A stretch of 64,000 bases of DNA from Candidatus Spyradenecus sp. (GCA_045535075.1 JAZSKX010000017.1:222860-286859), one strand, 5' to 3'; counted from the stretch's first letter, positions 2 through 63,499 are shown. The notes: generated by a model not told the origin, from the sequence alone. Numbers and translations are program-made.

Positions 2-493
2 CGCTCGATTGAGTGTATGAAAAAGGCTGATTTTTATATCTTTGTTGTTGATGTTTCTGCGGGAACGCCGAAGCTTGGCGACGAGGTGAAATCTTTGATT
101 CGCCCGGAAAATACCTTAGTTGTTTTGAATAAAAGCGATCTTGGTTTTGGATTGAATCCGGATATGTTCCTGCCGGAATTTGAAAAAATTACAGTCTCGC
201 TTTTAAAACCGGATGCATATGACGTGCTCTCGGGCAAGATTCAAAATGTTTTGAAAGCGAAGGAGATTGTTCCTCGCGACGATGTTTTAATCGTCGGAAT
301 ACGCCACGCAGAGGCGCTTTCCCGGGCGCGCGGGTATTTGGAAGAAGCACTTCGTGACTTAGGCATTGTTCCCTTGGAATTCACGGCAAATAACTTGAGA
401 AGTTCGATGAATGAGCTTTCGGAAATCCTCGGACGATTTGATAACGAGAAGATTTTAGACAAGGTATTTTCAGCCTTTTGTATCGGTAAATAA
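2..493 (+). CDS. mnmE: tRNA modification GTPase MnmE, C-terminal part (5' end outside window)
   Basis: G4 motif NKSD, C-terminal signature FSAFCIGK, directly upstream of mnmG; frame open to the window edge. Confidence 0.93.
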   Translation, partial: RSIECMKKADFYIFVVDVSAGTPKLGDEVKSLIRPENTLVVLNKSDLGFGLNPDMFLPEFEKITVSLLKPDAYDVLSGKIQNVLKAKEIVPRDDVLIVGIRHAEALSRARGYLEEALRDLGIVPLEFTANNLRSSMNELSEILGRFDNEKILDKVFSAFCIGK

Positions 494-494
494 T

Positions 495-2372
495 ATGAAA
501 AAAGAAATTCGCATTGATAAAACGCGTCCTTACGATGTCATTGTCGTCGGAGCCGGACATGCCGGTGTGGAAGCGGCCTTGGCGGCGGCGCGCATGGGTG
601 CCGACACGTTACTTCTGACGGGAAATCTCGATACGATTGCTAAAATGAGCTGTAATCCCGCAATCGGAGGTCAGGCAAAAGGACATATTGTCCGGGAAAT
701 CGATGCGATGGGCGGCGAAATGGGCGTTTGTGCCGATGCGACGGCGATTCAATTTCGTGTCTTAAATGCTTCAAAAGGCCCGGCGGTTCAGTCGCCGCGC
801 GCGCAGTGTGATAAATTGGTTTACGCAGCCCGAATGAAGCAGACTTGTGAGCTGCAAAAGAATTTGACGCTTTTTCAGGCAATTGCATCCAAGCTTATTT
901 TAAAAGCCGGGAAAGTGATTGGTGTGGATACTACTTTGGGAGTTCCGTTTTACGGGAAGACGGTTGTCCTGACTACGGGAACGTTCTTAAAAGGAAAGAT
1001 GTTTATCGGAAAAAACGTCAACGACGGCGGGCGCCTCGGTGATTTCAATGCAGAGACGCTTTCCGATAGTTTTCGCGATTTGGGAATGCAGGTCGAGCGT
1101 TTGAAAACGGGAACGCCGGCGCGAATTTTGGGTTCAACGATTGATTTTTCTAAGTGCGAGGAACAAGCCGGAGATGAGAATCCTGTTTTCTTCGGTTTCT
1201 ATGATACGCGTACGGAAGAAGACATGTTCCACGTGGAACATTGCGGAGAAACTCGACTCGGTTGGACGCCGGGAACAAATCAGCGCTCGTGCTGGCTTGC
1301 GGATACGGCGCTTTCAACGCGCGATGTCGTAAATGCAAATATTCATGAATCTCCGCTTTATTCGGGTTTGATTAGCGGAACAGGAGCGCGCTATTGTCCC
1401 AGTATTGAGGATAAATATGTAAAATTCCCCGATAAGGAGACGCATCGGCTGTTTTTGGAACCGGAGGGGTGTTTTTCTGATGAGTGGTATATTAACGGTT
1501 TTTCTACTTCCCTGTCCTTCTCGGTTCAGTTGGAGATGATTCGCAGTGTTCCCGCGCTCAAAAATGCGGCGATTCTTCGTCCGGCTTATGCGATTGAATA
1601 CGACTATGTTCCGCCGACTCAGCTATTCCCGACCTTGGAGACGAAGGCTGTTGAAAATCTCTTTTTGGGCGGGCAAATCAACGGGACTTCCGGATATGAA
1701 GAGGCGGGTGTTCAAGGTTTGGTCGCGGGAGCGAATGCAGCGGCGCGTGTCTTGGGGTTAAATCCGCTGATTGTCGGGCGGGAACATGGCTATGCGGGTG
1801 TTTTGATTGACGATTTGGTAACCAAGGGAACGCAGGAGCCTTATCGTATGTTTACCAGTCGGGCGGAGTATCGTTTGCTCTTTAATCATGCGAGTGCGGA
1901 GTTGCGTTTGATTGATTTGGTGGCGGATATGGGGCTTTTGAGTGATTCTCGAAAGAAAAATATCCAAGAAAAACAAAAGAAAGTGCTTTATTGGACGGAC
2001 GCTCTTGAAAAAGCGCTGATAAAAGGCGGTTATGCGGGAAATGTTCTTCGGAAAGATATTTCCGCGCTTCCGTCGGATCTTCCCGGTGAATTTACCGATC
2101 TTTCCCCTGAAATTAAGGATGAGGTGTTGTATCGAGTGCGTTATGCGGGCTATCTTTCCAGAGAACTGCGAAATATTGAGCGTATGAAGGATTTGGAGCG
2201 GGTTAAAATTCCGTCGGATTTAGATTATAACGGAATCGCCGGCTTGCGAATCGAGTCGAGACAGAAACTTTCGAAGATTCGCCCCGTTGATTTGGCTCAG
2301 GCTGAGCGAATTAGCGGGGTAAGCCCGGCAGATATTTCTCTTTTGATGGTTTATTTGCGTTCCCGCGCTTGA
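495..2372 (+). CDS. mnmG: tRNA uridine 5-carboxymethylaminomethyl modification enzyme MnmG (GidA)
   Basis: GAGHAG FAD motif, MSCNPAIGG, RYCPSIEDK, GQINGTSGYEEA, EPYRMFTSRAEYRL. Confidence 0.98.
   Translation: MKKEIRIDKTRPYDVIVVGAGHAGVEAALAAARMGADTLLLTGNLDTIAKMSCNPAIGGQAKGHIVREIDAMGGEMGVCADATAIQFRVLNASKGPAVQSPRAQCDKLVYAARMKQTCELQKNLTLFQAIASKLILKAGKVIGVDTTLGVPFYGKTVVLTTGTFLKGKMFIGKNVNDGGRLGDFNAETLSDSFRDLGMQVERLKTGTPARILGSTIDFSKCEEQAGDENPVFFGFYDTRTEEDMFHVEHCGETRLGWTPGTNQRSCWLADTALSTRDVVNANIHESPLYSGLISGTGARYCPSIEDKYVKFPDKETHRLFLEPEGCFSDEWYINGFSTSLSFSVQLEMIRSVPALKNAAILRPAYAIEYDYVPPTQLFPTLETKAVENLFLGGQINGTSGYEEAGVQGLVAGANAAARVLGLNPLIVGREHGYAGVLIDDLVTKGTQEPYRMFTSRAEYRLLFNHASAELRLIDLVADMGLLSDSRKKNIQEKQKKVLYWTDALEKALIKGGYAGNVLRKDISALPSDLPGEFTDLSPEIKDEVLYRVRYAGYLSRELRNIERMKDLERVKIPSDLDYNGIAGLRIESRQKLSKIRPVDLAQAERISGVSPADISLLMVYLRSRA
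1225..1240. promoter_or_regulatory. parS site (inside mnmG)
   Basis: Perfect palindrome TGTTCCACGTGGAACA matching the parS consensus; encodes MFHVEH. Confidence 0.88.
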
Positions 2373-2375
2373 TTT

Positions 2376-2391
2376 TGTTCCACGTGGAACA
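2376..2391. promoter_or_regulatory. parS site (just after the mnmG stop)
   Basis: Identical palindrome TGTTCCACGTGGAACA. Confidence 0.9.
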
Positions 2392-62408: not shown

Positions 62409-62462
62409 ATTTTTTCTATTCCGCGTGATTTTCCCGTTTTTTTTTGCGAATAAAAATTAGAG

Positions 62463-63119
62463 ATGGAGTTTCCGCAAACACCCAAGACTATAATCGAACA
62501 ACTCGTTTCGCCTGAAAAAAGTGCAGCTTGGAACGGGGCGTGGAGGAAGTTTTTTGATTTTTACCACGCGACGATTCGGGTCATGGCATGTAATTCGTTT
62601 TACAAACGCGGCTGGTACGGCGTTCCCGCGCACGTGATCGACGAGGTAATTGAAGAAATCGTGATTTCGCTGAACAAAGTTTTTATCGAAAAACGTTTCG
62701 ATTTTAGAAAATCACGTTTCCGCTTTTTCCTAAAAACCGTGTGCGATCGCCGTGTCGTCGATTACTTGAGGGAAAACGCCGTCTCGAACGAGGAATCCAT
62801 CGACTCCGAAGACGGAAAAATCTTGCGCCGGGCGGAAATTTATACTGCTGATGAAAACGCAATGCGGCTTGCCGAAGAAGAATTGCGGGCGTTTCGCCAA
62901 GCGCTTTTGTTCGATACTTATATGTCAATCCGTCATGAATTTGACGCACGGACTTGTATCGCGTTCGAGATGGTAAAACTCGAAGACGTTCCCGTCGAAA
63001 ATGTCGTGCGGGAACTCGGCGTTTCGCCGAACACGGTCAATAACGCCGTTTATCGGATTGTCAAAAAATTACGGACTGTCTTGTCCGAAAATCGGGAATT
63101 GGAGGATTTAATTTCATGA
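62463..63119 (+). CDS. ECF-type RNA polymerase sigma factor
   Basis: AWRKFFDFY, RFRFFLKTV...VVDYLR region 2; VVRELGVSPNTVNNAVYRI region 4 HTH. Confidence 0.85.
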   Translation: MEFPQTPKTIIEQLVSPEKSAAWNGAWRKFFDFYHATIRVMACNSFYKRGWYGVPAHVIDEVIEEIVISLNKVFIEKRFDFRKSRFRFFLKTVCDRRVVDYLRENAVSNEESIDSEDGKILRRAEIYTADENAMRLAEEELRAFRQALLFDTYMSIRHEFDARTCIAFEMVKLEDVPVENVVRELGVSPNTVNNAVYRIVKKLRTVLSENRELEDLIS

Positions 63120-63295
63120 AAAAGGACGAGAAAAAAAGTAAGCCTGCCACCGAAGAAGTCCCGGGTGAAGCCGATTCCATGATCTCCGAACTGAAATCCG
63201 CTTATAAGTCCATTATGCGCCTGCGTAATTCTTCCGGACATCGAAAAATCTCTCTTGAGATCGAACGGAAAATCCGCCGGAAGCCGAAGGATTGA
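63116..63295 (+). CDS. 59-aa charged small protein (not in ORF track)
   Basis: GGAGGA SD at 63101-63106, ATGA overlap with the sigma stop, MKKDEKKSKP...RRKPKD. Confidence 0.55.
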   Translation: MKKDEKKSKPATEEVPGEADSMISELKSAYKSIMRLRNSSGHRKISLEIERKIRRKPKD

Positions 63296-63499
63296 CGGAA
63301 AAAGGGCGCGCCCGGCGGGGGCGGCATTTAAGTTTTGCGAAAGCCGGAACACGTAAAACCGCAATAACACCTTGCGGCGGGTTGTTGTATTCTTGCCGGA
63401 TGAGGCCTTTCGCTCTCCGGATTTCGCGATTTTTTCGTTCCCGCGTGATTTTTGAAATTTTTTCGCGAATGTAGAGTAGATGCACTCTCTAAAACACCG

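Follow-up and report, generated by a model that had tools for sequence, protein, structure and literature searches.

DNA uptake sequences are described, in the part of a recent account that treats their occurrence (10.1101/2025.10.24.684340), only from the Neisseriaceae and Pasteurellaceae, as words of 9-10 nucleotides (nt) present in hundreds to thousands of copies and amounting to as much as ~2% of the chromosome; the same part has them forming the inverted repeats of terminators, enriched in core genes and absent from genes recently acquired. The stretch analysed here (the window), 64,000 nt at positions 222860-286859 of contig C16 of genome G000, carries throughout its length a word, CGGGAACG, which, as far as sequence can tell, has every one of these marks. 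We suggest by analogy, and with a probability of about 0.5, that it may be a genus-specific 'self-DNA' word working like the DNA uptake sequence (DUS) of Neisseriaceae and the uptake signal sequence (USS) of Pasteurellaceae. A shade more hesitantly, at somewhat under even odds, we suggest that it could represent a third, independently evolved uptake-sequence system, the first outside the Proteobacteria, whose reader would be unrelated to ComP.

The resemblance to the DUS (10-12 nt, with the minor type IV pilin ComP as receptor), so far as the passages concerning the DUS go, extends to a non-palindromic word in thousands of copies covering ~2% of the chromosome, to its use on both strands and in all frames, to inverted pairs at terminators, to enrichment in the core genome and to its being common to related species. 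The two differ in their sequences, which are unrelated, in the Verrucomicrobiota host of the present word, in a gradient of density in place of dialects, and in the lack of ComEA and of a ComP_DUS homologue, the latter judged over 19 genomes with a model of unproven sensitivity. With the USS (9-nt core) the word shares a similar core length, graded flanks, a strict inner core with tolerated edges, and sites both within genes and at terminators; the USS receptor is predicted, in the part of the article concerned with it, to be the minor pilin ComN/PpdA (PMC12616744). Here again the sequences are unrelated, the logo of the present word lacks AT-rich flanking segments, and a receptor is known, by prediction, on the USS side only. 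Cyanobacterial HIP1 (GCGATCGC), in the portion of its description drawn on here (PMC4390886), is likewise an octamer of comparable abundance, located in genes, restricted to one taxon and rare in some of its lineages; it is however palindromic and tracks orphan methylases, whereas our word is non-palindromic and no methylase of the families searched was found in the word-rich core.

The initial annotation had tallied by hand 155-160 copies of GCGGGAAC/GTTCCCGC in the window, roughly two on the + strand for each on the -. The exact count between positions 59 and 63444 is 160, with 104 on + and 56 on -, in agreement with both figures; the expectation given, about 2 copies, was slightly low, 100 dinucleotide-preserving shuffles of the window yielding a mean of 4.63 and a maximum of 10, and the strong excess stands. 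Window cores occupy housekeeping genes (MnmG, AdoHcyase, FtsA, FtsZ, MurC/B, RecA and others) and the spacers between them:

59..63444, both strands: field of the core CGGGAAC, 230 copies (141 on +, 89 on -), about one core per 280 bp

Genome G000 comprises 1,949,087 bases in 18 contigs, with 52% G+C and 99.45% completeness. In it CGGGAACG is commoner than GCGGGAAC and is the sharper core. Counts with strands pooled are:

CGGGAAC: 6528 copies
CGGGAACG: 5159 copies (2527 on +, 2632 on -)
GCGGGAAC: 4032 copies
GCGGGAACG: 3244 copies
GCGGGAACGC: 1614 copies

The word was correctly described as non-palindromic and present on both strands; its extension to CGCGGGAACG, said to be usual, occurs in only 1549 of the 4032 GCGGGAAC copies. 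Markov models of order 0, 1 and 3 predict 69, 183 and 587 copies of CGGGAACG vs the 5159 observed, the most over-represented 8-mers of the genome are CGGGAACG and its overlapping neighbours, and its copies, one per 380 bp, make up ~2% of the chromosome. A logo built over the 6921 genome-wide GGGAAC sites gives the consensus y-R-CGGGAAC-G-c (position -1, C 94%; -2, G 60% or A 25%; +1, G 77%; +2, C 45%), with no information past ~10 bases and no AT-rich flanking segments. Single-base variants of the inner C-G-G-G-A are near background, and those at the edges, at the second A and at the C are enriched 4- to 54-fold, so that the cloud of one-mismatch copies reported earlier exists at the latter positions and not in the inner core. 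No particular single-base variant is specifically depleted in the genome-wide counts.

For the placement of copies we used a rough gene model of the longest non-overlapping open reading frames (ORFs) of at least 100 aa, 1505 in number and covering 90.5% of the genome, a model that places starts too far upstream and loses a few true genes to ORFs of the opposite strand. By this model 2625 CGGGAACG copies are genic and sense, 1824 genic and antisense, 705 intergenic and 5 on boundaries; the density is 3.83/kb between genes vs 2.52/kb within them, and 1254 of the 1505 ORFs hold at least one copy. That so common a word is an artefact of composition, codon usage or a peptide motif has some appearance in its favour, in that the commonest frame reads Ala/Thr-Gly-Thr and giant repetitive surface-protein genes carry their copies in the sense direction only or nearly so (61:0, 47:0, 37:1). 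Density in these genes is ordinary, and the copies occupy those sense frames that the Gly/Thr/Asn-rich repeats permit. All six frames are in use (AGT 965, TGT 341, RER 418, xGNx 754, xVPx 1170, RSR 353, xFP 301), besides the spacers, bearing out the earlier observation that peptides as different as AGT, RER, RGN, VPA, FPR and RSR result and that no protein motif explains them. A codon-preserving null, proposed as a check, leaves the enrichment in place: permuting synonymous codons within each gene, with proteins unchanged, left 504 +/- 18 of the 4459 genic copies, and permuting codon order left 163 +/- 15 (15 shuffles each), removals of 89% and 96%. Codon choice and local peptide sequence are therefore both bent towards the word. 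Sister genera of similar composition lack it, and we give the artefact explanation almost no credence: the enrichment is real and is upheld by a force acting on DNA.

The three giant ORFs, of 12-14 kb and with 37-61 copies nearly all in the sense direction, lie at G000:C5:125844-140217, C8:185332-198142 and C9:13797-25875.

The word is confined to one genus. Two close relatives with names emerged from a protein search with ComEC, each a Candidatus Spyradosoma sp. with 51-54% identity and with 19-21 copies of the word in ~5.7 kb; NCBI places Candidatus Spyradosoma in the Verrucomicrobiota, class Opitutia. We tentatively take this to be the genus of the word-bearing genomes, and the attribution of the window to a Verrucomicrobiota lineage agrees with it, no other named close relative having been found. 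Enrichment of the word extends to all 19 genomes of the genus, at the following levels of CGGGAACG:

15 word-rich genomes, G000 included: 5159-7777 copies
G001, G002 and G013: ~1350 copies each
G014: 552 copies
controls: 73-159 copies

Beyond the genus, 102 genomes belonging to four sister genera in the family have at most 383 copies, which is the control level, and 12 other families of the order are likewise at control level; in a wider scan of the phylum, covering 396 genomes of 183 further genera, GCGGGAACG never exceeds 326 copies, vs 3244-5334 in five genomes of the genus that were scanned alongside. The search for dialects within the genus turned up none; one and the same word ranges in copy number from 552 to 7777. 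A dialect in the word-poor congeners was considered and rejected, CGGGAACG ranking first, sixth and first among the 8-mers of G001, G002 and G013 at ~0.5/kb; the G014 sample has no dominant 8-mer. One genome sampled from each of the four sister genera had no other dominant word. The top 8-mer of a 100-kb sample of G031, from sister genus g14, was CGTACCCG (CGGGTACG); it too was rejected as a dialect, its genome-wide count being 163 vs 141 for the control, and the three-base periodicity of its flanks indicates that it comes from a local repetitive coding region.

Whether the sites themselves are held in place can be read from contigs sampled from six congeners and aligned to G000, the control being the share of all aligned 7-mers that are identical. 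Core sites of G000 kept in each congener, and identity at third codon positions, are:

G003, word-rich: 51/71 kept (72%), control 29%; third-position identity 0.857 inside sites, 0.634 outside
G009, word-rich: 32/57 kept (56%), control 17%; 0.709 inside, 0.544 outside
G001, word-poor: 33/146 kept (23%), control 29%; 0.673 inside, 0.667 outside
G002, word-poor: 23/128 kept (18%), control 26%; 0.592 inside, 0.606 outside
G013, word-poor: 35/148 kept (24%), control 25%; 0.669 inside, 0.614 outside
G014, word-poor: 5/70 kept (7%), control 14%; 0.533 inside, 0.538 outside

Word-rich species thus conserve the sites even at third codon positions, whereas in the four word-poor congeners they drift neutrally. 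The sites that do occur in these congeners coincide with sites of G000 in 33 of 37 cases (G001), 23 of 31 (G002), 35 of 48 (G013) and 5 of 16 (G014). Alignments of orthologous sites are gapless, with one or two substitutions separating them, which means that the sites arose through point changes, not insertions; in the word-poor lineages the substitutions fall at positions throughout the word, no single C>T hot spot standing out. The species is present in many gut metagenomes (20 runs from 10 studies). Contigs from four of these runs, from four studies, that cover 40001-60000 of the window gave none of 39 in-range differences in core sites, with 1.4 expected, among the 40 of 836 differences that were listed, too few to be informative on constraint.

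The strain of metagenome run X4 joins cleanly across 45387-46979 of the window and so is without the 1.6-kb, GDSL-lipase-like ORF at 45358-46998.

The history of the sites was followed on two adjacent genes of the window:

13421..14422, +: GAPDH gene, with no core site here or in the 17 congeners aligned, an example of a gene without the word
14529..15941, +: AdoHcyase gene, with six core sites, five of them at the same codons in G018 and G004

By DNA identity over the two genes the closest relatives of G000 are the word-poor G001, G002 and G013 (86%), and the two-gene tree is ((G018,G004),(G009,(G000,(G001,(G002,G013))))), with the other species outside and support values of 0.85-1.0 (FastTree) and 66-99 (IQ-TREE). 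Only 2-3 of the six G000 sites in AdoHcyase are left in G001, G002 and G013, synonymous changes such as GCAGGAACT and ACGGAAACG having intervened; of 28 sites covered in these three genomes, all three lack 17 and retain 4, and the other 7 persist in just one or two of them. The simplest reading has the word arise once, at the base of the genus, its maintenance later lapsing in the G001 group and, separately, in G014, loss appearing likelier than gain on this tree of two genes and these small samples; a strong drive could also have created the word in parallel at the same permissive codons, a caveat to reading its rarity as loss.

GAPDH of the G000 clade has only ~69% protein identity to that of the other clade, which could reflect gene replacement.

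The word is enriched in core genes and absent from mobile DNA (prophages and defence islands), a statement that covers the longest word-free stretches that were annotated. Most of the longest word-free stretches are low in G+C; those annotated are:

C16:183000-220100, ~2.8 kb upstream of the window: Mu-like prophage (Gam, MuB-like ATPase, Gp27, terminase, Mu portal), almost without the word
C8:20-31 kb: second Mu-like element, word-free
C12:44.6-48.9 kb: C5-methylase/NgoBV-type restriction pair and AAA_15 ATPase, word-free
C5: gene for a 1609-aa helicase, in a word-free stretch
C2: reverse transcriptase and T5orf172 protein, in a word-free stretch
C18: small contig, ParB-like, zero copies of the word

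The prophage upstream of the window also has an ADP-ribosyltransferase domain match, a YadA-repeat tail-like protein and, at its end, two adjacent Dam-like methylase genes.

Absence from newcomers would be expected of an uptake word, and equally of any slow genome-wide process, which would leave newly arrived DNA without it. An intracellular, sequence-specific process unrelated to uptake, be it biased mismatch repair or gene conversion, something linked to methylation, or numerous binding sites, each under weak selection, of a genus-specific chromosome-organising protein, is accordingly an explanation to be considered, and one we think possible, at well below even odds. HIP1 offers a precedent, in the part of its description cited, as a hyper-abundant octamer linked to orphan methylases (PMC4390886). 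That constraint on the DNA has lapsed in whole lineages with no visible loss of the competence and pilus genes tested also speaks for such a process, as does the failure to find ComEA or ComP. Methylation, which had been raised as an alternative role for the sites, finds no support in the genes detected. The search, which left aside families such as the Eco57I-type, found no N6_N4 methylase and no Vsr in the genome; its two C5 methylases are in the restriction island and in a prophage; two of its three type-I-like N6 methylases adjoin low-G+C word-free stretches and the third is on the small contig C10; and a fourth, weak N6 match adjoins the reverse-transcriptase island. Every DNA methylase detected is therefore in or beside a word-poor island, a prophage or a small contig, and none is in the word-rich core. 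Nor could a repair bias at a single position lift a word of 9-10 bases ~75-fold, because every position must be discriminated; the want of any specifically depleted variant, a decay spread across positions and free of a C>T hot spot, and the lack of a palindrome also run counter to an intracellular origin.

Were the word instead a Chi-type signal read by an AddAB/RecBCD-like helicase-nuclease, linear DNA bearing it, whether incoming or broken, would be protected and recombined, which would also favour alleles with the word. The word is G-rich and of octamer scale, as Chi and KOPS are, and shows a slight leading-strand excess. G000 has an AddA/RecB-like frame of ~1100 aa carrying a PD-(D/E)XK nuclease domain, with others of like size in 14 further genomes of the genus and some match to the domain in 17 of 19; RecA and a RecD2-type helicase are present also. 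Strong co-orientation with replication is a property of both Chi and KOPS, and the enrichment of known Chi sites is far lower. With the leading strand assigned from local GC-skew sign, CGGGAACG lies on it 2774 times vs 2274 on the lagging strand (55:45), and 365 vs 325 (53:47) between genes. Strict leading-strand polarity that flips at origin and terminus, named earlier as an outcome that would refute the reading, is thus not what is seen. Sense exceeds antisense by 63:37 in leading-strand genes and 54:46 in lagging-strand genes, and over 20-kb bins strand bias correlates at 0.58 with GC skew and at 0.50 with gene orientation; the 65:35 ratio of the window follows from its position, with positive skew throughout and 31 of 45 ORFs on +. 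Weak polarity, retention of the nuclease gene in word-poor species, a density and fold-enrichment far higher than those of Chi or KOPS as generally known, the use of inverted pairs, and an information content of 9-10 bases at one site per 380 bp, which is the range of DUS and USS, together make a Chi-like role improbable.

Near C16:200 kb the GC skew changes sign, from negative to positive, and the window opens with the MnmG/GidA gene (495-2372). The window may adjoin the replication origin; the skew switch coincides with the prophage, which makes the placement uncertain.

Besides single sites the word forms inverted pairs. Neighbours within 40 bp stand in the order GTTCCCG...CGGGAAC in 265 cases vs 90 in the mirror order, with a spacing peak at 19 bp (58 cases), and overlap as a 14-base palindrome (d=7), GTTCCCGCGGGAAC, in 21 places in the genome. 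There are 205 pairs with members 7-24 bp apart, of which 137 are intergenic (47 in convergent, 83 in tandem and 7 in divergent spacers), so that 130 lie in spacers containing a 3' end. Among 70 pairs inspected, many have the form aaaaaaGC-GTTCCCG-loop-CGGGAAC-GCtttttt, with an A-run and a T-run as flanks, that is, the form of a two-way intrinsic terminator. Eight pairs lie in the window, listed here with the overlap palindromes:

10815..10843: inverted pair in the spacer of the minus-strand genes 8809-10794 and 11175-12323
14449..14474: inverted pair GTTCCCG-N12-CGGGAAC just 3' of the GAPDH gene, T-run behind, likely an intrinsic terminator
16608..16629: inverted pair 3' of ORF 15948-16580, flanks aaaag.../...ctttttg, terminator-like
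21105..21118: head-to-head overlap palindrome GTTCCCGCGGGAAC within a gene; another at 24535-24548
53891..53916: inverted pair between the convergent genes 52522-53850 (+) and 54274-55254 (-), bordered by an A-run and a T-rich run; hairpin resembling a two-way terminator
57147..57174: inverted pair 46 bp 3' of the tRNA gene 57030-57101 (+)
62988..63015: inverted pair close to the 3' end of ORF 62463-63119

A generic terminator scan of 9000-25000, uninformative as a whole, gave 21 sites vs 30.5 in shuffles; only its top match is a word pair, the one after GAPDH (17 pairs, 14441-14482).

These hairpins raise the question of whether the word is the footprint of a REP- or MITE-like element, or of a preferred terminator stem, its copies in genes being by-products. 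The 205 pairs, with their conserved stems and their location mostly at gene ends, are what such an origin would leave, and paired intergenic copies are better conserved than spacer even in the word-poor G001 (93 of 105 vs 1327 of 1662 positions). Set against this, 4449 of the 5159 copies (86%) are single, genic and frame-compatible, no flanks are conserved past ~10 bases, orthologous sites differ by substitutions in gapless alignment, and only 4-11% of core sites belong to inverted pairs in any genome sampled. We consider an origin of this kind very improbable.

Other repeats came to light as well. An intergenic element of ~100-190 nt with two hairpins has two copies in G000, at 53963-54165 of the window and at C5:31841-32029, with 84% mean column identity; it has DNA matches in G001, G002, G004, G013 and G018, belongs to no Rfam family at gathering score, and is possibly a small RNA or a shared leader. 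Rfam models over the window found tRNA only. An 80-bp genus-wide 'repeat' was rejected as a mobile element, since it encodes the sorting tail of PEP-CTERM proteins (at G000:C16:97107-97187, and at six places on C5 and C9), whose DNA is conserved enough to mimic a repeat. An AT-rich block next to some terminators was likewise rejected, being the common 3' end of six PEP-CTERM genes, all of which have it between stop codon and word-pair terminator.

Returning to uptake, we picture the word as acting in the following way. A retractile type IV pilus, together with a secretin and a ComEC channel, would bring DNA into the cell, with a surface reader favouring fragments that bear the word; recombination mediated by RecA and DprA would then let word-bearing alleles displace word-less ones. 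Such 'molecular drive' would write the word into permissive places, namely synonymous or tolerant codons in any frame, and spacers, where inverted pairs could double as terminator stems. Prophages and defence islands, coming by other routes, would be without it. The reader, we infer, belongs to the DNA-uptake machinery, and the organisms are transformable. An uptake or self-recognition signal had been the initial annotation's own proposal: all the sequence-level properties that could be computed fit it, and the role in uptake itself stays at the level of inference.

Much of the machinery this calls for has a candidate. Contig C5 encodes a PilT-family ATPase (436.6 bits vs a cut-off of 319.1), two PilB/GspE-like ATPases and PilC/GspF; a secretin and DprA are present in G000, and RecA lies inside the window. 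There are seven prepilins, which match known families only by their N-terminal methylation domain, four of them encoded together in an operon next to RuvX and close to RecJ. The search for competence genes that had been advised therefore yields pilus ATPases, secretin, prepilins, DprA and RecA, with no ComEA or ComP and a ComEC that is matched only in part.

A second secretin, in frames of ~774-878 aa, occurs in G001, G002, G004, G012, G013, G014 and G018 and is absent from G000 and 11 others; it does not track word density.

Several observations weigh against an uptake role. The ComEC-related protein (570 aa) matches only the model of the ComEC/Rec2 N-terminal domain and scores 74.7 vs an equivalog cut-off of 190. 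No ComEA-type protein was found in G000, the sole strong HHH_3 match lying in an 805-aa frame which, from its length alone, is taken to be Tex-like. Not one of the genus's 19 genomes has a ComP_DUS (PF16732) match at E<=0.01, a weak test, the same model matching none of 14 control genomes either. The models for ComEC, DprA and pili match 10-13 of these 14 controls, and such genes are common among bacteria with no known capacity for transformation. Intact ComEC and DprA are present in 19 of 19 genomes of the genus and the secretin in 18, the one miss being the word-rich G005. By DNA similarity the word-poor species keep the four-prepilin cluster of C1, the C16 prepilin and the PilB/PilT/PilC cluster; this last is 85-86% identical in G001, G002 and G013, again as DNA. 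Loss of competence or pilus genes as the cause of word-poverty is accordingly rejected for the genes tested, all of which are present in the word-poor species, and this natural experiment implicates no uptake gene among them. HIP1 is an equally abundant word with no known link to uptake. Finally, the organisms are known from metagenome assemblies.

Literature searches yielded no published description of the word, its strings, in the matches listed, apparently being primers or unrelated sequence, consistent with the earlier statement that nothing of the kind was known in this phylum. Searches for 'DNA uptake sequence' with Verrucomicrobia returned incidental mentions only, and the matches listed for natural transformation in the phylum include no report of it.

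Should the word prove to be an uptake sequence, it would add a third case, from a phylum far removed, dissimilar in sequence and lacking ComP, and would bear on whether sequence-specific choice of self-DNA is rare or recurrent by showing that it evolves repeatedly. Natural transformation in gut Verrucomicrobia would then be indicated, and DNA tagged with the word should then be taken up, providing a genetic handle on an uncultured group. If instead the reader lies outside the uptake machinery, the word would be the work of some sequence-specific force able to fill 2% of a genome with a single word and to be turned off in entire lineages, which would be at least as interesting. The four word-poor congeners are in effect natural knock-outs, and the contrast between them and the word-rich species puts either answer within reach of comparative genomics.

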